Of a stretch of DNA of 64,000 nt, positions 406-59,722 are shown in pieces. Under the pieces are notes generated by a model. The model saw nothing but the letters and a program-made list of their open reading frames with translations. It ran no database searches and was not told the DNA's origin. The stretch's first letter is position 1. Each line of letters starts with the position of its first letter. The position numbers and the translations under genes were made by a program. The stretch comes from a virus, in IMG/VR virus record IMGVR_UViG_3300032224_000723, positions 1 through 64,000 of that record. One strand, given 5' to 3'.

Positions 406-1079
406 TTTTTAACCATGTGAAAATTCCAGAATTAGATTTTGATTTAAAAGCAGTAACTACTGAATCTGGAAGAAAATACACAACACCGAATGGTGAGAAG
501 TATTCTTCTATCACCACTGTTCTATCTGCTTACAATAAAAAAGCAATCATGGAATGGCGTAAGAGAGTAGGCGAAGAGCAGGCGAATAAGATATCAAGCC
601 AAGCATCTCGCCGTGGCACTTCAGTGCATGATGTTTGTGAAAAGTTTTTGCTCAATGAATTGAGTGATATGAAAATACAAATGATGATGCCGAATGTGAA
701 GGAGATGTTTCTTCAACTGAAACCTGAATTGATGAAGAACATTGGCAACATCTATTGTTTAGAGCAAGCATTGTATTCTCATAAATTGAAAGTTGCTGGT
801 CGTGTAGATTGTATTGCTGAATGGAAAGGAAAACTTTCTGTCATCGATTTTAAAACATCAAGCAGGTTGAAAGACAAAGACCATATCAAAAATTATTTTA
901 TGCAATGTAGTGCTTATGCAATTATGTTCGAAGAGATTACTGGTTTACCAATCGAACAAATCGTGGTAGCTATTGCAGTGAATGATGAAACATTGCCGCA
1001 GATATTTGAAGAGACAAAACATAAATACATTGATGACCTTCTTTACTATGTGAAGAAACATCAAGATATTGCTGTATGA
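402..1079 (+). CDS. PD-(D/E)XK exonuclease (phage exonuclease type)
   Basis: SITTVLS, RGTSVH, AGRVDCI, IDFKTS and YFMQCSAYA motifs. Confidence 0.85.
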   Translation: MIFNHVKIPELDFDLKAVTTESGRKYTTPNGEKYSSITTVLSAYNKKAIMEWRKRVGEEQANKISSQASRRGTSVHDVCEKFLLNELSDMKIQMMMPNVKEMFLQLKPELMKNIGNIYCLEQALYSHKLKVAGRVDCIAEWKGKLSVIDFKTSSRLKDKDHIKNYFMQCSAYAIMFEEITGLPIEQIVVAIAVNDETLPQIFEETKHKYIDDLLYYVKKHQDIAV

Positions 1080-1325
1080 AGTAAAGAGAAAAGTGTTCTG
1101 GACGGGGGTGCGAATCCCCCCACCTCCACCAATTATCCATTCAAAGATAAAAGTGGATAATTGATGGGGGTGCATAGTTTCGACAGGGCAACAAGTAACA
1201 GAGTGGACAGCACGGTAGGCGATGACCGTTAATCAAGCAAAAAAAGTAAACGCAAACGACTCACAGTTCGCATTGGCAGCGTAAAGCAGCCTAGGGTAGG
1301 AAATACCTCGTAACAGAAACCACCA
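1071..1325 (+). ncRNA. ssrA: Circularly permuted two-piece tmRNA, tag (A)ANDSQFALAA
   Basis: T-arm plus CACCTCC-ACCA (1101-1131) precedes GGGGGTG..TTTCGAC (1166-1184); G3.U70 pair; intervening hairpin about 1130-1163; tag ORF 1252-1284; outer ends approximate. Confidence 0.93.
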
Positions 1326-1350
1326 AATAGGCTCTTCGGAGCCTATTTTT
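1325..1350 (+). terminator. Intrinsic terminator after tmRNA
   Basis: AAATAGGCTC-TTCG-GAGCCTATTTTT. Confidence 0.9.
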
Positions 1351-1365
1351 ACGATAAATATTTCG

Positions 1366-1473
1366 ATGATAGTTTATATACATGGCGCCAGCGCCACAGC
1401 AGAGGAGTCACTATTGGGTAACTCAAAATATCACACAGCAGTTATCTTGTGTTGGGCCGATACACAATTATAA
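1366..1473 (+). pseudogene. Truncated remnant of the alpha/beta hydrolase gene (first 13 codons duplicated)
   Basis: MIVYIHGASATAE identical to the ORF at 2702 (37/38 nt), then diverges and stops after 35 aa. Confidence 0.7.
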
Positions 1474-8549: not shown

Positions 8550-8624
8550 CTGGCGTTAGTATAACGGATAATACAGCGGCCTTCTAAGCCGTCAATAGAG
8601 GTTCGATTCCTCTACGCCGGACCA
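8550..8624 (+). tRNA. tRNA-Arg(TCT)
   Basis: Acceptor CTGGCGT/ACGCCGG, anticodon arm GCGGC-CTTCTAA-GCCGT, T arm AGAGG-TTCGATT-CCTCT, encoded CCA. Confidence 0.95.
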
Positions 8625-42658: not shown

Positions 42659-44935
42659 ATGCTTCAAACAAATCCAGAAATTAACACAATCATTGAAACA
42701 GCTACAGAATGTGCTGCCACTAAGAATCACGAATATGTGACTCTTGAACACTTGTTGTTGGCCATGGTCAACCATCCACCATTTAAACATATTATTGAAC
42801 AATTTGGTGCAGATGCCAGTGGCTTGATTGAAGACTTAGAATCTTATTTAGATCTTCAGACATATTTGATTAGCCAGGGCTATGATATTGTGCCTAAGAA
42901 AACACACAGTTTAGAACGTGTGTTTAATCGTGCATTTACACAAGTACTGTTTAGTGGACGCCAACACATGCAGGTCATTGACTTGTTCCTCAGTATTATG
43001 AGTGAGGAAAAAAGTCATGCAAGATACTATCTTGTCAAATACGGTTTGGAGAGAAAGAAACTTGTTGACTTTTGGAACTCAAATTACACTGAACAAAAAG
43101 AAAAGAAAAAGTCCAAAACTAATGCAGCTGATACAATTCTGCAAGAGTATTGTGAGAATTTAAATGAACTAGCAGAATCAGGAGAAATTGATCCTGTGAT
43201 CGGACGTGAAAACGAAATTGACGAAATTACACAAGTCCTAGCAAAACGCAATAAAAGCAATGTACTAATGGTAGGCGATCCTGGTGTAGGTAAAACTGCC
43301 ATTGCAGAAGGACTTGCACTGAACATTGTCACAGGAGATGTTCCAGACTATCTTAAAGATCACACTGTTTATAATTTAGACATTGGTAGTTTACTTGCTG
43401 GTAGTAAGTACCGTGGAGAGTTTGAAGAAAAACTCAAAGACGTTATCAAAGCATTGAACATCAAAGGCAAGGCTATTTTGTTTATTGATGAAGCACATCA
43501 AATGCGTGGTGCAGGATCAGGCAGTCAAAGCGGTCCAGACTTTGCTAACATGATTAAGCCTGCATTAACTAAAGGACGCATCAAAGTCATTGCCAGCACT
43601 ACATGGGAAGAATACACACAGAGCTTTGAGAAAGATCGTGCGCTGATGCGCCGCTTTTATAGACTTACTGTTGAAGAACCTACTCCTGAAGTAGCAAAAC
43701 AAATTCTACGTGGACTTAAAGATAACTTTGAAGAATTCCATGGTGGAACCATCACAGAAGAAGCTATTGATGCCGCAGTGGATCTTAGTGTACGCTATCA
43801 AACAGATAAGCGGTTGCCCGACAAAGCAATTGACTTGATTGATACTTCGGCAGCACGACTAAAGATTACTACAACAGACTTCGTTGTACGCAAGAGTCAT
43901 ATTATTGATGCTATCAGTAAATTTACAAAGATTCCAGTTGAGCAATTAGACACAGTTGCAGTTAAGAATCTTGAAAATCTAGAAGGTAACATCAAAGGCA
44001 AACTGTACGGACAAGATTCCGCAGTTACCGATGTATTGGATAAAATTTATGTCAGTAGGGCAGGATTAAAATCATTGAACAAACCTGTGGGTAGTTTCTT
44101 GTTCCTTGGACCTACTGGTACTGGTAAGACTGAGTTAGCAAAATTGCTGGCCGAAAATCTCGGGATGAAACTATTAAGATATGATATGAGTGAATACCAA
44201 GAGCGTCATTCAGTTGCAAAATTGATTGGTGCTCCCCCCGGGTATGTAGGTTACGATGATGGTAACTTGGGTGGTGGTTTATTAATTAGTGATGTAGAAA
44301 AGAATCCAAACTGTGTAATACTGTTTGATGAAGTAGAAAAAGCACACCCAGATGTCAGTAATATTCTTCTCAGTCTTATGGATGAAGGTATTGTTACCAG
44401 TAGCAATGGCAAGAAAGCAGACTGCCGCAATGCAGTTGTTATCTTAACTAGTAATTTGGGTGCCGCTGACAATGAACGCAACAGCATCGGTTTTGGTCGT
44501 AGTTTAGAAAAGTCAGGCGAGGATGATAAAGCTGTTAAAGACTTCTTTAAACCCGAGTTCCGAAACAGACTAGATGCTATTATTAAATTCAACAAATTAG
44601 ATCAAACCAGCATCCGTCGTATTGTTGACAAGTTTATTTTAGACATGAACGATTTGATCAGTGACAAACATATTCAAGTTTTGTTAACTGACAAGGCTGC
44701 TGACTATATTATTAGTCAAGGTTATGATAACAAAATGGGCGCAAGGCCACTGGCACGTAAGATTAACGAGTTGATTAAAGTGCCGTTGAGTAAACGTATC
44801 TTATTTGACAACATCACAAACTGTGTGGTCACAGTGGATTACACAGATAAGATTGAATTTGACGTTAAAGAGAATTTTGCTCTCTACGGCAACACTACTA
44901 TGATTGACGAAAACGGCTATGTTGTTGTGGAGTAA
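42659..44935 (+). CDS. clpA: ATP-dependent Clp protease ATP-binding subunit ClpA
   Basis: Clp N-domain; GDPGVGKT and GPTGTGKT; no ClpB middle domain; SIGF ClpP-docking loop. Confidence 0.93.
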
Positions 44936-47210: not shown

Positions 47211-47240
47211 TAGCTAAATACTACATTAACTGATTGTAGT

Positions 47241-49952
47241 ATGTTCATTACCGATTTATTTGAAGCAAAAAACACGCCTGTGATAGTAACATATCCAGGA
47301 CGCTTCCAACCCTTTCATCAAGGCCATGCAGGTGTATTTGCTGAACTGCAAAAACTCTTTGGCAAAAATAATGTTTATATCCTAACCAGCAACGATCAAT
47401 CAGGACCTAAGAGTCCTTTTAATTTTGCTGACAAACGTCAACTAATGACGGCTGCGGGTGTTCCTGGAGATCACATTGTACAGACTACTGCAATGTACGC
47501 ACTTCCAGAAGGATTTGACCCACGCAATACTATATTTGTCACAGCAGTGGGCGCACCCGATGCTGATAGACTAAACCCAGACTCAGTACTCAAAAGAGAC
47601 AAAAAAGACAAAGACGGCAATATAATAAAGCCTGCAGGCAGTCCAGGATACTACAAGACTTGGGGTGGTGCGGCTCAAGCAGTCACAGCAGATCAACACG
47701 GATATGTTGTTGTAATTCCTGAAATACACAAAGAAGTTAAAATTAAAGATCGTGTCTACGATGTAAGTCATGGCACAGAATGTCGTAACCTATGGAATAT
47801 GATACGTGGTGATGCTAAAGCCAGGTCAGAATTTTTAAGTCAGTTATATGGTAGACCTGATGCTAAGTTAGGACAAATATTTGACAAGATTCCTGCAGCA
47901 GTAGCAGAAGGTGATCCAGCGACTGCCACAAGAGGAGATCCTCATCCTGAAAATGATTTTTATTTTCCCGTCAAAGATCAATGGCCTGAAAAACTTGGCC
48001 CAATGGGCAAAGTGGCAGAAGATGCACCTCCTGGTGCCAAAGCTGAACGTATGGTCAAGCATATTAAAAAAGGATATGCTCGGGACGGTAAACTAACTGA
48101 CAAAGAAAAATCAATTGCTTTTGCCACAGCATGGAAGGCACACAATGCTGGAAAAGTAGAAGAAACAGATATCAATGCAGTAGTAGACACTAATACAGAT
48201 GCCCGCGGGAAACAAGATACATTAGGACTTAATGTTGGCACAAAAGTGGGCCCAGGTAATGCATCAGTACAACCAATAGCATCAGTTTCCCAAGACTATG
48301 ACCCAACACAAGTAACTGCTGGTGTTAATGCAAATTATGGATTGGATGTGGGCAAGGGCAGTGTCACTGCTGGCGTTACAAGAATGAGGGGCATGCCTAA
48401 CAACCAATTTAATCTACAAGCAAACTATCCAGTGGGCAGTGGCAATTTTAATGCTGGAGTATCTAGCTCCAAAGATCAGCCAAATAATATTAATCTAGGA
48501 TACTCTAATGGTGGATTTAATATTGGTTACAATCAATCTCAAGATGGTAAAAATAAAAATCTAGTAGCCAAATACACAAAGACTTTTGAAGAGTGGAGTC
48601 AAAAGTATAAGAAAAGTATCAACTGTAGTCATCCAAAAGGCTTTAGTCAAAAGGCTCATTGTGCTGGTAAAAAGAAACACAATGAAAGCATTGAAATGGA
48701 AATGACATGCCCTGATTGTGGCATGTGCGAAACACACGGTGATCATTCAAAAAATAAATTAGACGAATTAAAGTGCTGGCCAGGTTATACTAGAGTTCAA
48801 GGTGTACCAGCTGGTGCTCCAGGTAGTTGCAAAAAGAAAAAGAAAACTAACGAAGCAGGATCACCGGCACAACAAGCCGCTATTGCTATTGCAATGAAAA
48901 AAGCTGGCAAGAAACCAAAGCACGTTGACGAAGATGCTGCCGGAGTAGGTGTTGTTGCCACAAATAAGAAAATGGCAAGAGATCCACGTTACTCTACTAG
49001 TATGACAGTAGATGTACATCCAGACACTCCCAAGAAACAACTCAAAGCACTGAAACTTGCTGAAATGAAACCCAGCGACTTTGAAATAAGAAACTTTGAA
49101 AAGCTGGATACTATATTAGCAGAACTATGCCGGCAAGTTATTGCACATCAAAAAAACGATGCCGACTATTGGGGTATGGTGGCTGCTTGTGTTGTTGATC
49201 CCGATGACAACGTAGTACCCGGCATTAATTATTTAGACGATAGCGGCAAGCGTGTTCACGCAGAACGTGCAGCCATTGATTCCTATCGTGAACACTTTGG
49301 CGAAATACCTGAAGGCAGTATCATTGTTACTACACTAAGCCCTTGCTGTCATCCATTGGAAGAACGCTATGGTGAAAGTTGTACTGAACTAATCAACGAC
49401 ACAGACGTACACAAAGTCTATTGTGGATACAAAGATCCTACGCAAGAACAAACAATGAATCGTACATTCCATATAATGCAGACACGTAATGCTAGCATTG
49501 TGGAACTATGTAAATCATTTGCAGATACATTTCTTGGCAAAATAAACGAAGAAACTGAAAACAAACACAGCATTGACGAAGATGAAATGATGGTCATGGT
49601 CCGAGAGTTTTTGCCAGTGGCTATGAAGGATTTAAAGATTAAACGTCTACCACACATTGTGCTACAACCTTATGTAGAAGAACACGATGGACAAGCAACA
49701 TTTGGTAGATTTGTTGATTCTGAAGAACGCATTTATCTGGGCATTGCGGATCGTCATCCTGTGGACATACTACGCACATTAGCACATGAACTAGTACATT
49801 TTAAACAGTACGAAGATGATAAGATGTATCCAGGTGCTGGCCAAACAGGTAGCCCGATTGAAAACGAAGCACACGTTGTAGCAGGCATTATCATGCGTCA
49901 CTTTAATAAAAAGTATCCCATGGCCATTAAGTCCAAACCCCTGGAGTTATAA
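47241..49952 (+). CDS. Mosaic polyprotein: HxGH nucleotidyltransferase, beta-rich module, basic/Cys peptides, deaminase, HExxH metallopeptidase
   Basis: YPGRFQPFHQGH; HAERAAID..LSPCC..C; LAHELVHFKQ..PIENEA; modules joined at xxE linkers; MFITDLFE start. Confidence 0.85.
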   Translation: MFITDLFEAKNTPVIVTYPGRFQPFHQGHAGVFAELQKLFGKNNVYILTSNDQSGPKSPFNFADKRQLMTAAGVPGDHIVQTTAMYALPEGFDPRNTIFVTAVGAPDADRLNPDSVLKRDKKDKDGNIIKPAGSPGYYKTWGGAAQAVTADQHGYVVVIPEIHKEVKIKDRVYDVSHGTECRNLWNMIRGDAKARSEFLSQLYGRPDAKLGQIFDKIPAAVAEGDPATATRGDPHPENDFYFPVKDQWPEKLGPMGKVAEDAPPGAKAERMVKHIKKGYARDGKLTDKEKSIAFATAWKAHNAGKVEETDINAVVDTNTDARGKQDTLGLNVGTKVGPGNASVQPIASVSQDYDPTQVTAGVNANYGLDVGKGSVTAGVTRMRGMPNNQFNLQANYPVGSGNFNAGVSSSKDQPNNINLGYSNGGFNIGYNQSQDGKNKNLVAKYTKTFEEWSQKYKKSINCSHPKGFSQKAHCAGKKKHNESIEMEMTCPDCGMCETHGDHSKNKLDELKCWPGYTRVQGVPAGAPGSCKKKKKTNEAGSPAQQAAIAIAMKKAGKKPKHVDEDAAGVGVVATNKKMARDPRYSTSMTVDVHPDTPKKQLKALKLAEMKPSDFEIRNFEKLDTILAELCRQVIAHQKNDADYWGMVAACVVDPDDNVVPGINYLDDSGKRVHAERAAIDSYREHFGEIPEGSIIVTTLSPCCHPLEERYGESCTELINDTDVHKVYCGYKDPTQEQTMNRTFHIMQTRNASIVELCKSFADTFLGKINEETENKHSIDEDEMMVMVREFLPVAMKDLKIKRLPHIVLQPYVEEHDGQATFGRFVDSEERIYLGIADRHPVDILRTLAHELVHFKQYEDDKMYPGAGQTGSPIENEAHVVAGIIMRHFNKKYPMAIKSKPLEL

Positions 49953-51466
49953 TGCGAGCACATGAGTTTATAACAGAAGCCAAAACAACCCGAGAAGATT
50001 TTGAGGGCATGACCATTGAGATGGTTAAGAATGGTCATGTATTAGTGATCAATGCGCTTGATGATTGGGGCAATAACGTATTGGGTTCTGTTGCTTTTAA
50101 CATTGGCGATGACAATGAACTAGATCCGCAAGACTTAAAAGTTGATGAAAGATATCAAGGTCAAGGTATTGCTAAAATAATGTATGATTATGCAAAAAGC
50201 AAAGGCTACGAGATTCATCGTAGCTATGACCAGACTGATGCAGGCAAGGGTTTTTGGGACAAGCATCGCGGAGAAGATGTTCGTGTTTGGGAAGCCTTTA
50301 ACCGACCTTATAAAGGTAAATGGGAAAAGAGTGAATATAGTGGTAGTGTTGATGTATTAACCAAGTTGCCTGACGGAACACATTTGAGTATTATGTTCAA
50401 TGATGAAGGTGATGGAGAATATCAAGTTGAATTTCATAGAAACAATAGTCAATCAGTTACTGGCGAAGGTGACGCTCAACGAATATTTGCCACAGTATTA
50501 GCAGCCATACAAACATTCATTAAAAAATACAAACCCTGGCGTTTAACATTCTCTGCAAGTAAAGAAATAGACATGGACGCAGATTATGACCAGGCACGAT
50601 TTAATCCAGAAAGTCGTGCTAAGTTATACAACAGAATGGTACAGCGTTATGCAAGAGCATGGGGTTATGAGGATTATGCTGAGGATCATGGCGACCAAAT
50701 CACATATGAACTTACACAATTAAAGCAAGGTGCAGTAAAAGAAGATGTTCGTGTTTGGGAAGGCAAACAAACTGTTACTGAATACAGAGATAGGATGTAT
50801 CAATATCTCAAGAGTATTGTTCCAAATTGGCCAGACTATATTGTAAAAGATTGGTTATATGCCAACTTTGCCAAAGGACCAACACAAACCGCCAACTGGA
50901 GTTTTGAAACTATAGGAAAAGATATTCCTGTTATGTTAAAGGACATGGGACTAAGCGTTAACACCAATTGGCAACTTGTACCTAATATGAAGTTTACGAT
51001 GAACATGTGGGAACCAAAAACTTTAAAACGCCTACAAGCCAGAGCAGGTGGTAATACTAAAAGTGCGGACCCTATGGTACATATACCTGCCAATGATGCC
51101 GAACGTCATGCCACACAGGCTGCACTTGCAAAGCAACAAGGCGGTGTGCGTAATGAGCCTGTTATCTTAATGAAAACTGCACAAGGTTATGAATTGCTTG
51201 AAGGCTGGCATAGAACTATACAACATTTTGCTATGTATCCACAAGGTTATACTGGTCCAGCTTATGTAGCAGTAGCTGGTGCTGTACAAGAAAACTTTGC
51301 CGACGGACGTAATCCACAAGACAAAGGCGATAGCAAACGCTATCATGTACCTACTAAAAGCAGTGTCAGCAACTTACGCAAATTTGCTAAAAGTCACAGT
51401 GGACGTGCGGCACAGTTAGCACATTGGGCCGCAAATATGAAAGCTGGCAGGGCTAAAAAGAAATGA
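49952..51466 (+). CDS. Mosaic polyprotein: GNAT acetyltransferase, unknown domain, ParB/Srx-like domain, basic peptide
   Basis: VDERYQGQGIAK..QTDAGKGFW; EPVIL..YELLEGWHR; MRAHEFITE start. Confidence 0.85.
   Translation: MRAHEFITEAKTTREDFEGMTIEMVKNGHVLVINALDDWGNNVLGSVAFNIGDDNELDPQDLKVDERYQGQGIAKIMYDYAKSKGYEIHRSYDQTDAGKGFWDKHRGEDVRVWEAFNRPYKGKWEKSEYSGSVDVLTKLPDGTHLSIMFNDEGDGEYQVEFHRNNSQSVTGEGDAQRIFATVLAAIQTFIKKYKPWRLTFSASKEIDMDADYDQARFNPESRAKLYNRMVQRYARAWGYEDYAEDHGDQITYELTQLKQGAVKEDVRVWEGKQTVTEYRDRMYQYLKSIVPNWPDYIVKDWLYANFAKGPTQTANWSFETIGKDIPVMLKDMGLSVNTNWQLVPNMKFTMNMWEPKTLKRLQARAGGNTKSADPMVHIPANDAERHATQAALAKQQGGVRNEPVILMKTAQGYELLEGWHRTIQHFAMYPQGYTGPAYVAVAGAVQENFADGRNPQDKGDSKRYHVPTKSSVSNLRKFAKSHSGRAAQLAHWAANMKAGRAKKK
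50272..50762 (+). repeat. 23-bp direct repeat AGAAGATGTTCGTGTTTGGGAAG flanking an in-frame module
   Basis: Identical copies at 50272-50294 and 50740-50762 (EDVRVWE twice). Confidence 0.9.
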
Positions 51467-51999
51467 AACTTGTTGAGTTTAGTCCACTGACTTTGCCGGG
51501 TAGTTTCCATCGCGGATTAGTGTTCAACAAGTTATGGCTAATACACGAATTAGAAAAAATACAAAATAGTTTTAGTACAATCTACATACTGGGATCATGG
51601 TATGGAAACATGAGTATTTTACTGGCACGAAGTTCCATTGAATTTGACCATATAGTCAACGTAGACACTGATAAACAAGCAATGGTTACTGGGCAACGGA
51701 TAGCTCAACACATGGGCATTGATGATAAAATTGAGCCAATGGTCAAAGATGCTAATGCGTTAGACTATAGACAATTAGATTCTGATGGATTGGTAATAAA
51801 TTGTAGTTGCCATGACATGACCAATCAAGGCTGGTTTGATAATATTCCCCAGGGAGTTATGGTAGCATTACAAAGTAGAGACGATGTCAATGACGATTTA
51901 ACTGATTACGCATTGAGTCAAACACTGTTTGAAGGCACCAAGCAATTACGTGATCCAGAAACAGAATATACTAGCATATTAAAAATAGGTATAAAATGA
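51463..51999 (+). CDS. Class I SAM-dependent methyltransferase
   Basis: IYILGSWYG, VNVDTD, KDAN, VINCSC. Confidence 0.8.
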   Translation: MKLVEFSPLTLPGSFHRGLVFNKLWLIHELEKIQNSFSTIYILGSWYGNMSILLARSSIEFDHIVNVDTDKQAMVTGQRIAQHMGIDDKIEPMVKDANALDYRQLDSDGLVINCSCHDMTNQGWFDNIPQGVMVALQSRDDVNDDLTDYALSQTLFEGTKQLRDPETEYTSILKIGIK

Positions 52000-52298
52000 A
52001 CGAAGTAAAAATTACAGCAGATATCTACTGCGATCACAATTTTAGACCACTTGAGTTTGCTACAGATGGGGAAAAGTCCTATAGAGTATATGTAAACGAC
52101 GACTTAATAACAGAACGCACATATATTTGGCATAATAACGAATACTTTGTGCGGGAAAACATTGTAGTTAGGTTACCTGCAGGCGAACACAAATTTAAAG
52201 TAGTACCGGCGTATCCATTCTTTAATGTATTTTTCTTTAAAAACTTTACAGTAAATGATCAGTTACAACTTTATGATGGCCAATTCCATATAGACTAA
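51996..52298 (+). CDS. Hypothetical protein
   Basis: YRVYVNDDLITERTY. Confidence 0.7.
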   Translation: MNEVKITADIYCDHNFRPLEFATDGEKSYRVYVNDDLITERTYIWHNNEYFVRENIVVRLPAGEHKFKVVPAYPFFNVFFFKNFTVNDQLQLYDGQFHID

Positions 52299-52324
52299 TA
52301 AATATAACATATTGAGGATTTCAC

Positions 52325-53317
52325 ATGAAAAGCTACGATTTTTTAACTGAAGGCATTGTCGAAGACGCACACGAAATGCACCAGGATCACGAAGTACAAA
52401 TGGCACGTAAGGACTGCTACCAAGCCGCAGAAAATGCTATTGCACTACACAAACTACTGCGTCACGTCAGTGAAAATCAAGGCATTGAGGGATGGGTAGC
52501 TGCTAAAATTACATTGGCCAGCGACTACTTGAACACAGTGCGTGAATACTTGGAATACGAACTAATGAATCAGCACAGCGAGCCAATGGCCGGTGCTCCT
52601 GTTAGTGTTGAGTTTCCTATTGCCGAAAGTCGTCAGATAGACGAAAGCAAAATGAAGGATCTAGACTTAGATTTAAAAAAGCCTCCAGTGGGCATGACAG
52701 ATCAAGCGTTTAAGAAAAAATACAACATGACCAAAGCAGAAGCTAATTCTAAGTTTTCTGCTAAAAAAGAAGTTGAAGAAGGCGTCATTGGTAAAAAGAA
52801 GCCTAAAGCAGATAGTTACCACATTGTTGGCAAAGATGGCAAGCCAGTAAACCTAGCTAGTTATAATGACCGTGCAAGTGCTGAAAAGGATCGTGACGAA
52901 AAACATCCTGGTGCTAAAGTACAACAAGTTGGCGCAAGAGGTAAAGTTAAAGGTGTTACAGAAAATGTTGATGCCAATACAATTTGGAATCAATATGGTC
53001 ATTACTCTAAGGATGACTTAATGCAGGAATTCCCACAATTAAGTCCTAAAGATGCACAGACTATTGTTAACTTTGCTGAATATGGTTGGACAAATATGCC
53101 TAACCGTCAAGAGTATAGAGATGAAGTAATAAAGAGAGTACTACATGCTATGAGCGGACGACAAGGTGTTTCAGAAATGAGCGCAGGTAGTGTTGCTACT
53201 GTGGTCAATCCTACACCTAAGAACAAAGCAAAAGTAGGTACACTGTTTGGTGGCACTTATCAAAGAGAAGAAGCAGATACTCCTTCTAAAAAAAGAATGT
53301 TTAATAAAAAGGCCTAA
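52325..53317 (+). CDS. Mosaic head-associated polyprotein
   Basis: MKSYDFLTE start; DHEVQMAR..EGWVAAKITLASDYL; xxE-delimited modules. Confidence 0.75.
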   Translation: MKSYDFLTEGIVEDAHEMHQDHEVQMARKDCYQAAENAIALHKLLRHVSENQGIEGWVAAKITLASDYLNTVREYLEYELMNQHSEPMAGAPVSVEFPIAESRQIDESKMKDLDLDLKKPPVGMTDQAFKKKYNMTKAEANSKFSAKKEVEEGVIGKKKPKADSYHIVGKDGKPVNLASYNDRASAEKDRDEKHPGAKVQQVGARGKVKGVTENVDANTIWNQYGHYSKDDLMQEFPQLSPKDAQTIVNFAEYGWTNMPNRQEYRDEVIKRVLHAMSGRQGVSEMSAGSVATVVNPTPKNKAKVGTLFGGTYQREEADTPSKKRMFNKKA

Positions 53318-53320
53318 GCT

Positions 53321-54790
53321 ATGAGCGACCTACGCCAACTAATTGCAAAAATGGACCAAATCGAATCGGGTTCATTGCCAAAGAAGAAAAAAACTATTAA
53401 AGAAGATGCTGCTATTCCTGTGTCATCGGGCGGCGATATTATTGGTGGTATAAAATCACTGGGGCCTAAAGTAGCTAAAAAAGTTGTCCCTGCATTGGGT
53501 TTCGTTGATGCTGGAATGAGAGCACACGAAGGTGATTACACTGGTGCGGCTATAGGCACTTTGGGCGGCATTACTGGCGCAATACCACATCCGATAGCAC
53601 AAGGTATATCATTGAGTGCAGATGCTGTAAATCAATTACGTGACTACGCCAAGGAAAAAGGCGGATGGGGCGAAGTAGCCAAAGAAATTAGTCAGTCAAT
53701 GAAAAGCCATGATGATAATAATTTTCTTCCTGAAAATTTAGAAACATTAGACGAAGAAGGACTACGTAGTTGGTTAGCTAAAAAAGGTATTAGTGCTGCT
53801 GAATATTTAAAAAATTTAGTTAAGCCTGCAGAAAAAGAAATTGCTGATGTAAGTGCTGCCCGCCCAACTGATATTTCTGGAATCGGTTCTGATGTTCCTG
53901 GCACGATAAGAGTTGGTACTCCAGCAAAACCACCCGAAGTTCCTTCAGCAGCCACAACTACAAAATCACTGGATCAACGTGCCCAAGCTGCGAGCGAGAT
54001 AAATGCAAAATTAGATACGTTACCAAAACCTAAAATAAATGCTAAAGATTATCAAGCACAATTAGCAAAACAACAAGAACTAGAAAAACAATTAAAAGAT
54101 CCAAGACCCGCAGTATGGAAAGATCCAAGAAATCCTGAATTGCCAGCGTCAAAATCTCCCCCAGCGGCAAATGTGGAACCTCCACAACCATTGAATGGTA
54201 AATCATTTAAAGATGCTTCAGCAGAAGTTAATAAAACCACCGGGCCTAAAGTAAATAGAGATGAGTTAGGAAGACCGTTGGACAATCAAGGTCGAAACAC
54301 CACAACCTTAGGTGGTGAGCCTATTACCTATGATGCAGCCGGTAATCCTAGCATTGGCACTACGCCTAAATCTAATTTTAATAGACCAAGTTCAGCTAGA
54401 GGTGACACAGAAATGGGTCCTGAAATAGATCCTAATGCACCACCTGAATGGTTTCAACAATGGCAGGCAAACCAGCAAGCCCAGCAATTACCCCAACCGC
54501 CGGTAGATGCAGACAAGCCGGGTATATTGAAATCAATTGGCAAAGCAATGTGGAATAATCCAAAAACAACTGCCGCAGTTGCCACTGGGGCAGAGTACGA
54601 AAGAGAAAAAAATGCTAACTGGAAAGGTGCTAAAGCAGCTGGTCAACTTGCACACCCAGATGATGATTTTTGGTCATATCAAAATCAAATAAAAGACTTT
54701 GGTGTTAAACCAGAACTAAAAACTCCTACCAAAGAATCATTACAAAATAAATTGTTTAACGAATTTAAAACATTTGTAGAAAAGAAATAA
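53321..54790 (+). CDS. Low-complexity virion/ejection-type protein with Gly-zipper segment
   Basis: GDYTGAAIGTLGGITGAIP; Pro-rich; ends LFNEFKTFVE. Confidence 0.7.
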   Translation: MSDLRQLIAKMDQIESGSLPKKKKTIKEDAAIPVSSGGDIIGGIKSLGPKVAKKVVPALGFVDAGMRAHEGDYTGAAIGTLGGITGAIPHPIAQGISLSADAVNQLRDYAKEKGGWGEVAKEISQSMKSHDDNNFLPENLETLDEEGLRSWLAKKGISAAEYLKNLVKPAEKEIADVSAARPTDISGIGSDVPGTIRVGTPAKPPEVPSAATTTKSLDQRAQAASEINAKLDTLPKPKINAKDYQAQLAKQQELEKQLKDPRPAVWKDPRNPELPASKSPPAANVEPPQPLNGKSFKDASAEVNKTTGPKVNRDELGRPLDNQGRNTTTLGGEPITYDAAGNPSIGTTPKSNFNRPSSARGDTEMGPEIDPNAPPEWFQQWQANQQAQQLPQPPVDADKPGILKSIGKAMWNNPKTTAAVATGAEYEREKNANWKGAKAAGQLAHPDDDFWSYQNQIKDFGVKPELKTPTKESLQNKLFNEFKTFVEKK

Positions 54791-54791
54791 C

Positions 54792-56873
54792 ATGAGTGAT
54801 ATGCGCCGACTACTAGAAGCCATGGACAGCATGAGTCGTGCTGAGAAGAAACCCACAGGTCCAAAATTTCCAGGTTACTGGAAAGGTACAGATCCTGCCA
54901 GTGCTGCTAAAAATAAAATGGTTGGCGGCTGTGAGCAAGAAAGTGTTATTCCCGAACTAGCAAAAACAGCAAAGAAGAAATCTACAGAATGGGAATTAGA
55001 AGAAGCATTCAAACAATTTAAAGAAGGCGAATTTAGACGAGACGTTATCCCCCAACAACAAGCACCAGTGAATACTAAATTAGATCCAGGATATGGAAAG
55101 CCTTTAGATAGACTTCCTGATCCTCAAGGAGATCAAAGCGGCGGATTTAAGAAAGTACTGCCCGGTGAAAAATTTGATAAAGACCAATGGTCTCTGCCAG
55201 GTAAACCTAGCGGTACTCCTAATTTGCCAGTTAGTCCTGATGTCAATACCCCATTATATACACCGCCGTATGCAGGTGATCCAGGTCTGGGAGTAAAAGT
55301 TCCCACTGATAGATTTGATGTCATTGGTGATGGGCCCACCTATGCACAAGGAATCAGACCTCCTTATCAAGCCAGATATAAACCTGGCAAAGAACCTGTA
55401 GAATTAAAAACAACAGAACCGCCAGTTTCAGTAGCTGGTCCAGAGCAAGAAAAATTTGATGTTAAGACTAATTCAATTAAAGTTAATCCAGCAACTGGTA
55501 ATGTTACTAAACAAGATAAACCTGAATTTGCTGGTCCCACAGATACATTTATCAAAGATAAGAATGGCAAGTGGGTAGAGAATCCAAAATACTCAAAGCC
55601 TAATACAGATATTAGTCCAGAAGAAAATGCTGAAATTGATCAACAAATAAAACAACAGCAACAAGTACAGCAACCACCGGAAGTTAAACCTGCCCCAGAA
55701 GTTAAATCAGTATCCACTACTGGTTCAGATACACTAAGAACTAATATAAACAAAGCCAGTAGCGGAAGTGACAACTCTGCCGTTAAAACTGGAACCTCTT
55801 CTCCCACACAAACTGAGCCAGAACCTCGACCAGGTAGCTGGCAAGAACTTGCAAAACTGAATAATATCACTGATCCTACTAAATTACGTGCAGGACAAAC
55901 AATTAGATTGCCGGACGACAGTAATTATACCATAAGTCCAAATGATACACTTAGTGGCATTGCTCACTCCTTGCGTACTACTGGTCAGCCACCAGGACAA
56001 CTAAAAAGCCAAAAAACTACGCAAGCTGATCGAGATCAAACTCCACCGTCCGATGGGACAGCAAAATCTGTAACTACTACACCAGTATATGTGGGTGGTA
56101 AGGCTAAAAGAAAAGCAGCGACTATTACAACACCAGAGATTAATTATTCACGAGACCCTGATGTCATGTCTGATCCAACTGCACCAGAAACTAAAGGATA
56201 TCAACGTAGTCCAGAACAAAAAGCCGCAGATGCGGCTGCACTAGCCGCGGCAGAACGAGCAGAAAGAGCACGACAAAAACTAAGATCGAACTTGCCGCAA
56301 TCAAAAAACAAACCAAAACCTCAAATCGCTGTTCCTGAATCATTCAGTCAACGACTAGCCAAAGACTTCGAACAGTTTTTAGAATCAGACGAGCCTTATT
56401 CGGGTTACGATCAAGATGTTAAAAAATTAAAACAACGTGCCAAGTTAGGCCCGATGAAAACTGTATGGGATGAGAAAACACAGAGATATCGTGTAGTACC
56501 AGTTAAGCCACAGGAAAAACAAATTAAAGAATATGGTAATGCACAAGACGCTAACCAACAAGCTACTAATGCCAACCAACAACAAACATCGCAAACAGGT
56601 GACCAAAAAGCCATAGACCAACAAGTAGACATTGCCACTGCTAAGTCAACAATGTCTGGCTTAAAAAATGTTCTTGGTCCACAACTTAATACCAATGCTG
56701 CTGCCAGTGGTGTTGTAAAAATGAATGACGGGAAACCTTTATCAGTACCAGAACGTGAAGCGATAAGTACACTAACACCATTGGTATCAAAAGCAGCAGA
56801 AAATCCTGCTACCGCCAGTGCATTAAAGTCAGCGTTAAGTACAGCAGGTATGTTGGCCAAGCAAGGAAAATAA
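54792..56873 (+). CDS. Low-complexity virion protein with LysM-like domain
   Basis: MSDMRRLLE start; LAKLNNITDPTKLRAGQTIRLP..YTISPNDTLSGIA. Confidence 0.75.
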   Translation: MSDMRRLLEAMDSMSRAEKKPTGPKFPGYWKGTDPASAAKNKMVGGCEQESVIPELAKTAKKKSTEWELEEAFKQFKEGEFRRDVIPQQQAPVNTKLDPGYGKPLDRLPDPQGDQSGGFKKVLPGEKFDKDQWSLPGKPSGTPNLPVSPDVNTPLYTPPYAGDPGLGVKVPTDRFDVIGDGPTYAQGIRPPYQARYKPGKEPVELKTTEPPVSVAGPEQEKFDVKTNSIKVNPATGNVTKQDKPEFAGPTDTFIKDKNGKWVENPKYSKPNTDISPEENAEIDQQIKQQQQVQQPPEVKPAPEVKSVSTTGSDTLRTNINKASSGSDNSAVKTGTSSPTQTEPEPRPGSWQELAKLNNITDPTKLRAGQTIRLPDDSNYTISPNDTLSGIAHSLRTTGQPPGQLKSQKTTQADRDQTPPSDGTAKSVTTTPVYVGGKAKRKAATITTPEINYSRDPDVMSDPTAPETKGYQRSPEQKAADAAALAAAERAERARQKLRSNLPQSKNKPKPQIAVPESFSQRLAKDFEQFLESDEPYSGYDQDVKKLKQRAKLGPMKTVWDEKTQRYRVVPVKPQEKQIKEYGNAQDANQQATNANQQQTSQTGDQKAIDQQVDIATAKSTMSGLKNVLGPQLNTNAAASGVVKMNDGKPLSVPEREAISTLTPLVSKAAENPATASALKSALSTAGMLAKQGK

Positions 56874-56874
56874 A

Positions 56875-59262
56875 ATGAATTTACATAGTTTGTTTGAAAA
56901 TGTAGCAGAAGAAAAATGTCCGCATTGCAATGGGCCAATGTTCAGTGAACTAATGATCAATGAAAAGAAAGATGCTTGCTACTACAAAGTCAAGAGTCGT
57001 TATAAAGTATGGCCCAGTGCTTATGCCAGTGGTGCATTAGTTAAGTGTCGCAAAAAAGGCGCAGACAGTTGGGGCAATAAATCGGAAAGCGTGGCGGAAG
57101 CCACAGGTGATGAGAAGTTTGATACCATGATGGGCAGGATACAGCAAGAACCAAAGTATCCTGATTCACAAATGCCTCCAACAGATGTAAAAGATCTGTA
57201 TCAATGGGCAGTCAAAAACAACAAGCCGTATCATAAAATTTTTGCTGAATGGGCCATGAGAGAGGGTTACAAGTCTGTTGCCCCGGCATTACAGAAAGCG
57301 GGTAATTTAGATAGTGACGCTTTAGATTATTGGACTCCACGTGTTTGGAAAATATATTGGGGCGAAGTCCGGGGTATTGATTCAGAAATGCCCCCAGAAT
57401 GGGCCAAAAAACGTATACCTGCGGAATTGAGATATTATCTTGATGATGTGTTTGATGCTTATGATCGTATAGTGTTTGATTGGCCCACAGAATATCGTCA
57501 GATTGGTCAGCAAGGCATGGCGGAAGGTTTAGATAAACCTGAAGAAAAATCTATGTATGATTATCGTGGTGTTCCTGGTTTAGATAAACCTGAAGAAAAA
57601 TCTATGTATGATTATCGTGGTGTTCCTGGTTTAGATAAACCTGAAGAAAAATCTATGTATGATTATCGTGGTGTTCCTGGTTTAGACGAAGGCATGAAAG
57701 CCGATGAGCTTTCACGCTACTGTGAAGAACTTGTGGCAGAAAAAGGCTGGGATGCCGCATACAAACATGCTAGATTTATGGCACAAGGTGCTACAGATCC
57801 TGCCTGGGGCAGTGTATTAAAATATCTTCATGCCATGAAAGACGGAGTATCAGAAGATCAACTAGACGAAAATTTACGTCAGTGGTTCAAAGAAAAATGG
57901 GTACGATTTGGTCCAGACGGAAAGATTCGCGGAGACTGTGCCAGAGGAGATGACAGCGAAGGTAAGCCAAAATGTTTGCCTCAAGCCAAAGCACACGCAC
58001 TGGGTAAAAAAGGTCGTGCCAGTGCTGCCGCAAGAAAACGCAGAGAAGATCCCAATCCTGAACGCCGCGGCCCTGCACACAATGTTGCTACAAAATCTGA
58101 AAGCTCGTTAAACGAATTTGCGCCAGGCAGTGATGACGGCAACGATGGATTCAGTGATGAAATACTAAAGCGTTTAGCCGCACAATGGTGGCAAGGTGAC
58201 GAAGATCCAAGAGTAGAACGCACACTAGCGGCCGCTGGTTGGGAAATTGGGCAAGACGAAGGCTATGACAACGGTGGTGTATTTGTTGTAATGTCCGGTG
58301 ATGAGCATGGCCGCAGTTACATGAGCTGGCCCGCAGAAGAGTTGGAAGGCTTGTCGGAAGGCTACTACAATGACATAGGTCCGGAATACGGTGGTGCTGG
58401 CAAGGGTCGTTCCGAAGATGCAATGATGACTACCAAACTTACTAGACAAGCAAAAGCTGCCGCCAAAAAAGCTGGCAAAACATTTAATACCAGTGCTGAA
58501 TATCGTTTGTGGCATAGGAAACAAAAAGAAAAACAAGGTGTGTCGGAAGCACAAACTGATTATCAAAAGCGCCGTCAACGTGAACGTGATGTAGATGCAG
58601 GTAAGCCAGTTAAACGTCAACCAAAGAATCCACAGAATGATTATTTTGCACGTCGTAAAAAAGAACGAGACTTAGCAGAAGACCAAGCTGTACAACTATC
58701 ACCTAATATATCAGCAAGACCAAATCAAGATCCTGACTCGCCCGAAGACTATGACTACTTTTATAAAGACATGCAGGTAATGCCCGGGCAAGATTTTCAC
58801 ACACAGATAAAAGATCAACATCTACGTCAAATGGATCCTGCATATAATACTATGCGAACAGCATTTGATAACCCTATTAAGCCAGGACCGACTACAACTT
58901 ACAAAGAACCTAAGGGCGACACAATAATCCCAGTGCGTCCGCAAGAGCCAGAAAAAATGAAGGACATAGAAGGCAATCCTGTTAGACTAAGAGATTATGT
59001 TCCCGGTGATCCAAGGATATCAGAGTCTCGCTTATACTATAATGTCATAGGCACAGCAGATAAAGAACTACGTTCAGCCTTTGGTATGAGAAAAGATAAA
59101 AACGGTTGGTTCTTAAAAGAATCCAGCAGTACAAAATATAAAATGATGGCGCAACGTGCATTTGGTAGTCCTAAGTTGCAGGAATATAATTTTCCTGCAG
59201 GGCAAGCTACTAAAGGCAGTGAAGGTGTAATCAGTCCTGTTGGCTCTATCCCACGTAATTAA
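56875..59262 (+). CDS. Mosaic polyprotein of about 10 small modules joined by G(V/M/L)(A/S)E-type linkers
   Basis: MNLHSLFE start; WPSAYASGALVKCRK and LRQWFKEKWV..KCLP basic modules. Confidence 0.8.
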   Translation: MNLHSLFENVAEEKCPHCNGPMFSELMINEKKDACYYKVKSRYKVWPSAYASGALVKCRKKGADSWGNKSESVAEATGDEKFDTMMGRIQQEPKYPDSQMPPTDVKDLYQWAVKNNKPYHKIFAEWAMREGYKSVAPALQKAGNLDSDALDYWTPRVWKIYWGEVRGIDSEMPPEWAKKRIPAELRYYLDDVFDAYDRIVFDWPTEYRQIGQQGMAEGLDKPEEKSMYDYRGVPGLDKPEEKSMYDYRGVPGLDKPEEKSMYDYRGVPGLDEGMKADELSRYCEELVAEKGWDAAYKHARFMAQGATDPAWGSVLKYLHAMKDGVSEDQLDENLRQWFKEKWVRFGPDGKIRGDCARGDDSEGKPKCLPQAKAHALGKKGRASAAARKRREDPNPERRGPAHNVATKSESSLNEFAPGSDDGNDGFSDEILKRLAAQWWQGDEDPRVERTLAAAGWEIGQDEGYDNGGVFVVMSGDEHGRSYMSWPAEELEGLSEGYYNDIGPEYGGAGKGRSEDAMMTTKLTRQAKAAAKKAGKTFNTSAEYRLWHRKQKEKQGVSEAQTDYQKRRQRERDVDAGKPVKRQPKNPQNDYFARRKKERDLAEDQAVQLSPNISARPNQDPDSPEDYDYFYKDMQVMPGQDFHTQIKDQHLRQMDPAYNTMRTAFDNPIKPGPTTTYKEPKGDTIIPVRPQEPEKMKDIEGNPVRLRDYVPGDPRISESRLYYNVIGTADKELRSAFGMRKDKNGWFLKESSSTKYKMMAQRAFGSPKLQEYNFPAGQATKGSEGVISPVGSIPRN
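57526..57686 (+). repeat. Perfect 3 x 51-bp in-frame tandem repeat (GLDKPEEKSMYDYRGVP)
   Basis: Units at 57526, 57577 and 57628 plus partial fourth. Confidence 0.97.
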
Positions 59263-59287: not shown

Positions 59288-59722
59288 ATGGATGAACTCA
59301 TTAAAGCAATGAAAATTGCATTTGCAACAGAATATGGCTTTGCTGTAAAAGCACAGTTTTGCCATTGGAATGTAATAGGACCAGAGTTCCCACAATACCA
59401 TGCATTGTTTGACACTATCTACACAGAAGTATATGGCAGCATTGATCCATTTGCTGAAAATATTCGTAAGTTAGGTAGTTATACTCCAGGTAGCTTCCAA
59501 CGTTTAAGTATGTTAAGTCAAATCGACGAAGACCTTGAAGTTCCCCCTGCTATGACTTTAGTCGCTGGTTTATTAGAAGACAGCGAAAAATGTAGTAGAC
59601 TATTTAAAATGGTTTATGATCTAGCAGAGCGCGAAGGCAAACATGGCCTAAGCAACTTCCTAGCAGAACGCATGGATGCACATGACAAGCACTCTTGGAT
59701 GCTTAGATCAACTTTAAAATAA
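59288..59722 (+). CDS. dps: Dps / DNA-binding ferritin-like protein
   Basis: HWNVIGPEFPQYHALFD..IDPFAENIRKLG..HDKHSWML. Confidence 0.93.
   Translation: MDELIKAMKIAFATEYGFAVKAQFCHWNVIGPEFPQYHALFDTIYTEVYGSIDPFAENIRKLGSYTPGSFQRLSMLSQIDEDLEVPPAMTLVAGLLEDSEKCSRLFKMVYDLAEREGKHGLSNFLAERMDAHDKHSWMLRSTLK

Follow-up and report, generated by a model that had tools for sequence, protein, structure and literature searches.

Leader-headed cassette proteins with head-protease-like junctions in a T4-superfamily jumbo phage: a candidate polyprotein cargo system

Introduction

This report aims to describe a gene cluster in the IMG/VR virus record IMGVR_UViG_3300032224_000723 (156,993 bp, hereafter G000). The window, i.e., the stretch of DNA that was analysed, is the first 64 kb (64,000 nucleotides) of this record, and the cluster occupies positions 47241–59262 of it. 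Several of its open reading frames (ORFs) open with a short leader resembling the capsid-targeting sequence of phage T4, and four of them continue as strings of exchangeable cassettes whose clean breakpoints all lie directly after a Glu and nearly all right after the motif [LIVMF]-x-E. These features suggest a set of head-packaged polyproteins, to be cut at their joints by the head protease of the phage.

In T4, the internal proteins IPI, IPII, and IPIII as well as Alt carry a capsid-targeting sequence and undergo processing by the gp21 protease (Mullaney and Black 1996, reviewed in PMC9026906, PMC3012670, and PMC5694885). This combination of a leader with gp21 is an established mechanism for diverse cargo in T-even phages (PMC3012670, PMC9026906).

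The gene cluster and its phage

CheckV puts the completeness of the 156,993-bp record at 45%, implying a genome of ~350 kb. Because it encodes a gp6-like baseplate wedge, a gp5-like hub-lysozyme, a gp55-type late sigma factor, and a gp47/SbcD-like nuclease, the record is a fragment of a T4-superfamily jumbo phage. A complete relative (G001; 364,247 bp, with terminal repeats) has 110 of 210 ORFs in common with it at a median identity of 42%, and gene order is kept around the locus. Judged by the major capsid protein (64–67% identity), the nearest cultured phages to this relative are Vibrio phage 2.275.O, Pseudomonas phage PA5oct, and the Rak2-like coliphages. Megablast of the 12-kb region itself returned no match in cultured phages.

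The region is filled by eight co-directional ORFs (Table 1), all present at the coordinates given in an initial annotation of the locus and arranged in two tight operons, ORF1–ORF4 and ORF5–ORF8.

Table 1. Genes and promoter-like motifs of the cluster (positions in the window; residue numbers refer to each protein)
Feature	Position	Strand	Description
TAAATA	47215..47220	+	20 nt upstream of ORF1, start of operon ORF1–ORF4
ORF1	47241..49952	+	903 residues; leader MFITDLFE and cassettes up to residue 903 (from Pfam, PHROGs, and breakpoints against relatives): 9–223 (HxGH nucleotidyltransferase), 224–260, 261–308 (DUF6321-like, basic), 309–451 (beta-rich); 452–482, 483–509, 510–538, 539–564, 565–608 (27–44 residues, mostly basic, several with Cys pairs); 609–780 (Zn deaminase), 781–903 (HExxH, IrrE/M78-like as a lead)
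ORF2	49952..51466	+	504 residues; leader MRAHEFITE, GNAT 10–114, DUF6934-like cassette 115–270, 7-residue spacer 271–277, ParB/Srx-fold cassette 278–447, basic tail 448–504 (net +11)
ORF3 and ORF4	51463..52298	+	178 residues (methyltransferase-like) and 100 residues; co-transcribed; neither leader nor cassette structure
TAAATA	52299..52304	+	20 nt upstream of ORF5, start of operon ORF5–ORF8; context AATAAATA
ORF5	52325..53317	+	330 residues; leader MKSYDFLTE; candidate cuts 107, 152, 213, 284
ORF6	53321..54790	+	489 residues; 15-residue leader of the third class, long low-complexity body
ORF7	54792..56873	+	693 residues; leader of the ORF6 class, Pro/Gln/Thr-rich body, LysM 349–374, C-terminal module common to relatives
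ORF8	56875..59262	+	795 residues; leader MNLHSLFE(NVAE) and ten cassettes: 13–75 (Cys4, basic), 76–217, 218–272 (three perfect 17-residue repeats), 273–332, 333–414 (basic, Cys2), 415–495 (acidic), 496–558, 559–602, 603–717, 718–795

The modules that the initial annotation named hold up to different degrees. Pfam supports the nucleotidyltransferase (CTP_transf_like, residues 18–71) and the deaminase (dCMP deaminase, 634–729) of ORF1 as well as the LysM of ORF7, and its GNAT match in ORF2 is marginal. For the HExxH module (ORF1 781–899), the ESM Atlas gives structural matches to stand-alone viral IrrE/M78-like clusters, a label carried by 14% of the neighbours, and Pfam gives no match above threshold (E 0.11), so the family assignment is a lead only. 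Pfam on single-cassette slices at E ≤ 1 yielded no usable assignment for the HExxH, beta-rich, and ORF8 cassettes. An AlphaFold2 model of ORF2 278–447, built with 67 homologues in the alignment, forms one compact domain that starts at the predicted cut (pLDDT 85.8, pTM 0.80). Since its best matches in the PDB are sulfiredoxin and ParB N-domains, at weak but consistent E-values of 0.015–0.1, the label "ParB/Srx-like" seems reasonable for the modelled domain at the fold level. Orthology of the ORF1 nucleotidyltransferase with the core cytidylyltransferase of cyanophages is not claimed, as the part they have in common is the nucleotide-binding motif only (E 0.011).

Taken as separate units, the predicted products comprise nucleotidyltransferase, deaminase, GNAT, ParB/Srx-fold, and HExxH enzymes or domains, several acidic modules, and many peptides of 27–82 residues with a net charge of +4 to +11, several of them with Cys pairs. 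Lacking both leader and cassettes, ORF3 and ORF4 are probably embedded non-cargo genes; the Pfam matches of ORF3 to methyltransferases are all weak, and its homologue in the complete relative is located elsewhere, at 252 kb.

Two cassettes deserve a remark of their own. The Gly/Asn-rich, beta-looking cassette of ORF1 (309–451, window 48165–48593) ends in ..YTKTF before the joint and by eye recalls the C-termini of outer-membrane beta-barrels; its counterpart in G002, a closer relative, is a stand-alone leader-tagged protein (L009:14742–15383). In ORF8, a perfect 51-bp tandem repeat (3.2 copies, window 57526–57686) starts right after the GMAE junction and encodes the three identical 17-residue units, apparently as the result of recent expansion.

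Leaders of three classes

The initial annotation credited seven ORFs with similar N-terminal peptides. Six of these do open with a recurrent leader of 8–15 residues that ends in hydrophobic-x-Glu, whereas the MKLVEF start of the methyltransferase-like ORF3 was rejected as a leader. PADLOC gave no hit among the six proteins. A reading as Sec signal peptides was rejected by inspection, the leaders being short, acidic, and without a hydrophobic core.

The first class, M-[RK]-[AST]-x-[ED]-F-[IL]-x-E, heads ORF2 (MRAHEFITE/A, the slash marking the predicted cut) and ORF5 (MKSYDFLTE/G) and takes forms such as MRAQEFINE and MRAREFIRE in relatives. Its proposed likeness to the T4 capsid-targeting sequence is borne out by the T4 genome (NC_000866), in which IPII and IPIII start with MKTYQEFIAE/A, a close match to both leaders, and in which gp22, gp21, gp24, and gp67 likewise open with short leaders ending in hydrophobic-x-E. 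In T4, targeting is sensitive to residues 4 and 7 of the leader and processing to residues 8 and 10, with Asp at position 10 blocking the latter step (PMC9026906).

A DNA pattern for MRAxEFIxE, the commonest form of the first class, matched at least 120 stretches in IMG/VR. Among the matches listed (80 loci), it begins at the first ATG after a stop in 85 of 95 cases and is followed by bodies from at least 19 unrelated clusters. Being found on so many unrelated protein bodies, the leader is portable. The complete relative alone has eight leader-type ORFs.

The second class, M-x-I-x-[ED]-L-F-E, comprises the leaders of ORF1 (MFITDLFE) and ORF8 (MNLHSLFE), and one member elsewhere also precedes an HxGH nucleotidyltransferase. 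The third class, found on ORF6 and ORF7, is longer and weaker, with only two look-alikes found by eye.

Cassettes and the junction rule

ORF1, ORF2, ORF5, and ORF8 are mosaics. The initial annotation had seen strings of modules in several ORFs, and all the linkers that it listed are present (AVAE, KVAE, KVEE, KLDE, HVDE, KLAE, TVTE, AVQE, GVTE, GVSE, SVAE, GMAE, GLSE, and SLNE). Their cassettes recur in relatives in other orders, as stand-alone proteins, or right behind a leader: in BLAST comparisons with relatives, segments of ORF1, ORF2, and ORF8 turn up rearranged and in different proteins, and the last cassette of ORF5 (285–330) is found directly behind leaders in other phages. The breakpoints of ORF1 fall at 308, 451, ~482, 538, 564, and 780.

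Read at the level of single residues, every clean breakpoint lies directly after a Glu, and nearly every one right after [LIVMF]-x-E. The GNAT cassette, for example, always ends in ..VWE/ and has six different neighbours behind it. The junction before it, which in ORF2 is that of the leader (..FITE/), is an internal ..DLTE/ in a 1638-residue protein of G002. Conversely, the internal ..KVEE/ before the beta-rich cassette of ORF1 corresponds to the leader MRAREFIRE/ in G002, and the first cassette of ORF8 is internal in another phage, where it follows ..GVAE/. Across the surveyed loci, [LIVMF]-x-E, be it of a leader or of a junction, stands before five cassette starts in 7/7, 6/6, 6/6, 7/7, and 7/8 cases, against a chance level of ~2% for the pair of a hydrophobic P3 and a Glu P1 as estimated from residue frequencies.

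Larger surveys give the same picture. The ParB/Srx-fold cassette (ORF2 278–447) has 226 short homologues, and the stand-alone ones (more than 200) cover 95–97% of ORF2 271–447. In the 91 homologues in which the cassette start could be located, an 8–9-residue leader stands directly before it in 79 and the start is internal in 12; P1 is Glu in 90 and P3 is I, L, V, or F in all 91 (a leader logo was built from 76 of the stand-alone homologues). ORF8, searched against a library of 1.84 billion sequences clustered at 50% identity, matches 4019 representative clusters at E ≤ 1e-3 and 672 at E ≤ 1e-30. Its best matching stretches have stereotyped ends on the query (~70, 220–226, 327–328, 410–411, and 497–516) and lie at arbitrary positions in target proteins of 214–1601 residues. 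For one of its cassettes, the best 150 hits gave a preceding Glu in 89/89 and an aliphatic P3 in 83/89.

The same cassette may thus stand behind a leader or behind an internal joint, and a cut would give the same mature N-terminus either way. In this respect leader and internal joint are equivalent, which is the main argument for the joints as putative processing sites. The cassettes also look like autonomous folding units, in view of their stand-alone homologues, the modelled single-domain fold that starts at the cut, and the structural matches of the HExxH module, which span 781–899. No predicted domain straddles a supported junction; the proposal that module boundaries fall at the x-x-E linkers and not in domain interiors is upheld by the breakpoints.

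The DNA of the joints has features of its own. Identical 23-bp direct repeats (window 50272–50294 and 50740–50762), 468 bp or 156 codons apart, code for the ..EDVRVWE junction on both sides of ORF2 115–270, as would follow from a recombination event at the joint that inserted or duplicated this cassette. Four junctions of ORF8 (residues 75, 217, 495, and 558; window 57086–58549) have the form ..TG-NCG-GAA-G with GCG or TCG codons, which make up 7% of Ala and 4% of Ser codons, respectively, in the genome. This signal is weak (~P 0.03, post hoc); the rare codons may stem from a foreign source or from a role of the joints at the level of DNA.

Head protease, virion proteins, and timing

The initial annotation tied its reading to a T4-type prohead protease in the genome. 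Such an enzyme is not encoded on the fragment at hand but is found in its relatives. In the complete relative, a head module ~10 kb beyond gp47 encodes an acidic core protein, a 211-residue Peptidase_S77 protein (E 5.6e-28; G001:285722–286357, minus strand), a 365-residue coiled-coil scaffold, and a Gp23 protein (E 2.8e-99). The protease keeps the His and Ser motifs of its T4 counterpart (NC_000866), and the L-A-E/S of the capsid protein aligns exactly with the T4 gp23 maturation site L-T-E/A after residue 65, the T4 propeptide being 65 residues long (PMC5694885). Because both the protease motifs and the gp23 site match those of T4, the lineage has a gp21-type enzyme and, as far as the alignment goes, the same predicted cleavage rule. 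Peptidase_S77 is also present in 5/5 other large leader-bearing genomes (258–525 kb), and the contig end of G002 starts with gp23. Two small ORFs of the complete relative (124 and 139 residues; G001:13510–13689, plus strand, locus L021, and G001:201018–201194, minus strand, locus L020) match only the first 55–61 positions of the Pfam Gp23 profile, i.e., the mature N-terminus of the capsid protein.

Links to the virion, though thin, come from cultured phages. Single cassettes match hundreds of T4-like cyanophages. Among the matches to ORF8 cassettes is the "structural protein T4 GC0119" of S-P4, which likewise consists of these basic Cys modules in series. A cytidylyltransferase has been detected in S-SM1 virions by Sullivan et al. 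(PMC3037559); a look-up of T4-GC119/190 in the supplement of their 2010 paper did not find the entry and is uninformative. In PA5oct, which has few clear leaders, four leader-like proteins (EST35_0150, 0151, 0203, and 0237) are all marked as detected by electrospray ionization tandem mass spectrometry (ESI-MS/MS) against a baseline of 93/461 (GenBank record; PMC7318152), a small sample picked by eye and post hoc.

Both operons start behind a TAAATA motif (Table 1). The motif clusters in front of ORFs, occurring 117 times in the whole record and preceding 42/210 of its ORFs; counted within 45 nt upstream, it is found before 20% of the ORFs of the record and 15% of those of the complete relative, including most structural genes (baseplate and tail genes in the former, head genes in the latter). 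Its frequency in both is about half that predicted from base composition. TAAATA is a good late-promoter-core candidate for the clade, and a T4-type late promoter read by the gp55 homologue would fit. Since it also precedes non-structural genes, it indicates late timing at most.

Neighbouring genes

Some genes near the cluster and its counterparts are of interest in themselves. A 758-residue ClpA/B-like AAA+ protein (window 42659–44935; phrog_4871, E 5.8e-245) is encoded 2.3 kb upstream of the cluster, and this position is kept in G001 and G002. Directly after ORF8 follows a 144-residue ORF with its own TAAATA (window 59288–59722), Dps/ferritin-like by eye, whose counterpart in the complete relative (120584–121024) lies in the middle of the leader-gene cluster. 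The same relative encodes a leader-tagged 397-residue protein with, by eye, a C-terminal GH19-type lysozyme motif (G001:122249–123442), followed by an ORF with a signal-peptide-like start and a nuclease-like look (G001:123439–124260); a packaged wall-degrading enzyme would fit the cargo reading. Farther away, ARAGORN finds a tmRNA-like gene (window 1039–1375, tag ANDSQFALAA) and a tRNA-Arg(TCT) (8550–8624).

Comparison with known systems

The closest precedent is formed by the T4 internal proteins, which likewise have a 9–10-residue leader of nearly the same sequence, a hydrophobic-x-Glu end, and unrelated bodies behind it. The lineage also has the gp21-type protease, gp22-type scaffold, and gp23 capsid, and many of its predicted products are basic. 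The T4 internal proteins, however, are single and small and are trimmed at the leader (Alt also at its C-terminus), whereas the predicted precursors described here reach 903 residues with up to ~11 cassettes, each behind a cut-site motif. Moreover, cassettes are here shuffled between genes and phages, and there are several leader classes.

A second close precedent, which the initial annotation did not name, is provided by the polyvalent proteins of phages and conjugative elements (Iyer, Burroughs, Anand, de Souza, and Aravind 2017, PMC5512222). These are likewise long polypeptides in which conflict-type domains (in their case zincin-like peptidase, ParB-like, nucleotidyltransferase, acetyltransferase, lysozyme or peptidoglycan-binding) follow one another, and the prediction is that they are packaged, injected, and split into units. 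With a nucleotidyltransferase, a deaminase, and an HExxH module in ORF1, and with GNAT and ParB/Srx-fold domains in ORF2, both proteins fall within the range of 2–15 conflict-type domains by which polyvalent proteins are recognized. For the zincin-like metallopeptidase hub and the ParB-like domain of DdrB type that also mark this group, the HExxH module and the ParB/Srx-fold cassette, respectively, are candidates. The polyvalent model, on the other hand, relies on an embedded metallopeptidase and has no junction rule, whereas here a head-protease-like motif marks the joints and a T4-type leader the N-terminus; many of the cassettes are, furthermore, basic peptides of 27–80 residues and not enzymes. 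According to PMC5512222, T4-like phages are without genuine polyvalent proteins with ART domains.

The inner-body and ejection proteins of phiKZ, 201phi2-1, and SPN3US are comparable in that a T4-related prohead protease cuts many head proteins after Glu, in some cases at several sites, and in that propeptides serve for targeting (PMC5694885, PMC9026906). They differ in their S/A/G-x-E motif and in propeptides of more than 100 residues that are discarded; these phages are not of the gp23/gp22 type, and no cassette shuffling has been described for them. Membership of this type was rejected for the proteins at hand, given their I, L, V, M, or F at P3 of the junctions and their leaders of 8–15 residues.

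Direct homology, finally, connects ORF8 (25–90 and 323–408) to T4-GC0119 / T4-GC_110 of the cyanophages S-P4 and S-MbCM100 (clusters of Sullivan et al. 2010, PMC3037559). These, too, consist of basic Cys modules separated by ..E junctions and are encoded among late and structural genes. The two copies that were read differ in having no MRA-type leader, and "structural" is here an annotation carried over from the proteomics of related phages. In the literature searched, we found no description of leader-headed strings of exchangeable cassettes, each delimited by a head-protease motif, in T4-type phages.

A proposed mechanism and its alternatives

From these observations we infer packaging, cleavage, injection, and the roles of the products as follows. 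The precursors of the T4-superfamily jumbo phage would be expressed late. Their leader (M, a few residues, then acidic-hydrophobic-hydrophobic-x-Glu) would act as a capsid-targeting sequence by which the precursor docks onto the prohead's scaffolding core. Once activated, the gp21-type serine protease would cut after the Glu of [LIVMF]-x-E, at the leader as well as at the equivalent junctions between cassettes, so that one precursor would yield several products. The small, strongly basic peptides, often with Cys pairs, would probably sit on the packaged DNA, by analogy with the T4 internal proteins, which are lysine-rich and contact DNA (PMC3012670). The folded products (HxGH nucleotidyltransferase, Zn deaminase, GNAT, ParB/Srx-fold, and zincin-like HExxH) would leave the head along with the DNA, to function in the next host at an early stage. 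Since every cassette would begin right after a cut site, cassettes could move in frame from gene to gene and from phage to phage and still function, which would account for the extreme mosaicism. We consider this full model, in which precursors are packed in the head, cut apart, and delivered with the DNA, reasonably probable, though well short of certain. As to the initial annotation, its observation is confirmed and all its testable computational predictions held, and its interpretation is partly supported.

Critically speaking, several findings weigh against this model. No protease, scaffold, or capsid gene (neither Pfam Peptidase_S77 nor Gp23) is present on the 157-kb, 45%-complete fragment, which ends at gp47, so the link between protease and cargo rests on the relatives; the cargo cluster is, moreover, not adjacent to the head genes. 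ORF6 and ORF7, which the initial annotation had included among its candidates, bear leaders and have few internal sites, and are not clearly polyproteins. Folded domains contain [LIVM]-x-E triplets in large number, not all of which can be cut; nor are the ORFs as a whole enriched in the triplet, the signal being positional only. An automated test on the ends of all BLAST high-scoring segment pairs placed 7/29 within 3 residues of [LIVM]-x-E (P ~0.07). These ends being too fuzzy, exact breakpoints and surveys of cassette starts were used instead, and the strong result depends on the former. Some junctions (..HNE/, ..TNE/, ..KSE/) have no hydrophobic P3, and in some cassettes the motif may belong to a conserved N-terminal part of the cassette itself. 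The leaderless nucleotidyltransferase-like protein of PA5oct is not marked in the virion proteome.

The main rival to cleavage holds that the joints remain uncut: only the leader would be removed, or nothing at all, and [LIVMF]-x-E would be a conserved flexible joint for in-frame recombination in intact "polyvalent" proteins, packaged or not. The exact repeat of junction-coding DNA on both sides of ORF2 115–270, the common ..TG-NCG-GAA-G of four ORF8 junctions with their rare GCG/TCG codons, and the recurrence of a "QGVAE" linker in many loci all agree with joints that recombine, and intact delivery of polyvalent proteins is known in some systems (PMC5512222). Recombination, however, needs similarity of DNA and not an invariant Glu with an aliphatic P3 amid varying junction residues and codons, the rare-codon signal is weak and post hoc, and the same cassette starts occur behind true N-terminal leaders, where recombination is not at issue. 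We therefore regard uncut joints as unlikely. The chains might also be cut by a different enzyme, namely their own zincin-like HExxH peptidase, before packaging or after injection, as Iyer et al. 2017 (PMC5512222) proposed for polyvalent proteins. ORF1 does end in an HExxH module, which in relatives occurs inside a 1638-residue chain and as leader-tagged stand-alone proteins, and the set of domains (ParB-like, nucleotidyltransferase, GNAT, peptidase) matches the inventory of that study. Yet the module is present in only one of the six ORFs and its family assignment is only a lead (Pfam and Atlas, as above), whereas the motif at the junctions is that of the T4 gp21 rule and of the gp23 maturation site predicted for the lineage, and this makes self-processing very improbable.

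A more radical view is that the proteins have no association with the virion, the N-termini serving, e.g., as a translation or degradation signal, perhaps for the ClpA/B-like ATPase, and the mosaics being ordinary fusions in a hyperplastic region. The distance between the cluster and the head genes, the synteny of the Clp-like gene with the cluster in G000, G001, and G002, and the occurrence of TAAATA before non-structural genes are in line with it. Neutral fusions, however, would not retain a junction motif, and the leaders are very similar to the N-termini of T4 core proteins and to the T4 leader as defined by experiment. With Peptidase_S77 in all the large leader-bearing genomes tested, and with virion annotations in cultured phages for leader-like proteins and for cassette relatives, we deem this view improbable.

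Significance

The packaged and cleaved polyproteins that we propose may not be confined to one jumbo phage. In the broadest form of the proposal, environmental T4-type phages, from cyanophages to jumbo phages of 350–500 kb, would share an undescribed "cassette polyprotein" cargo system in which a cut site of the protease is at the same time a universal in-frame joint. In this way phage populations would shuffle one shared stock, thousands strong, of injected enzymes and of peptides that coat the DNA, giving each virion a custom kit that is released by a single protease. We put this generalization forward tentatively, as a prospect a little short of even.

If the junctions are indeed cut, T4-type phages would multiply and diversify their injected cargo in a way that is absent from the literature searched. 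One leader would suffice to load a whole string of products, and any cassette could be moved to any position or phage with its release site retained. A very large amount of "hypothetical" phage sequence would thereby acquire a role (ORF8 alone leads to its 4019 clusters), and the odd mosaic "structural proteins" found in marine cyanophages would be accounted for. The scheme would also provide a large pool of candidate early host-takeover or anti-defence effectors and DNA-condensing peptides, as well as natural rules for engineering the packaging of multiple cargoes in T4-type capsids.

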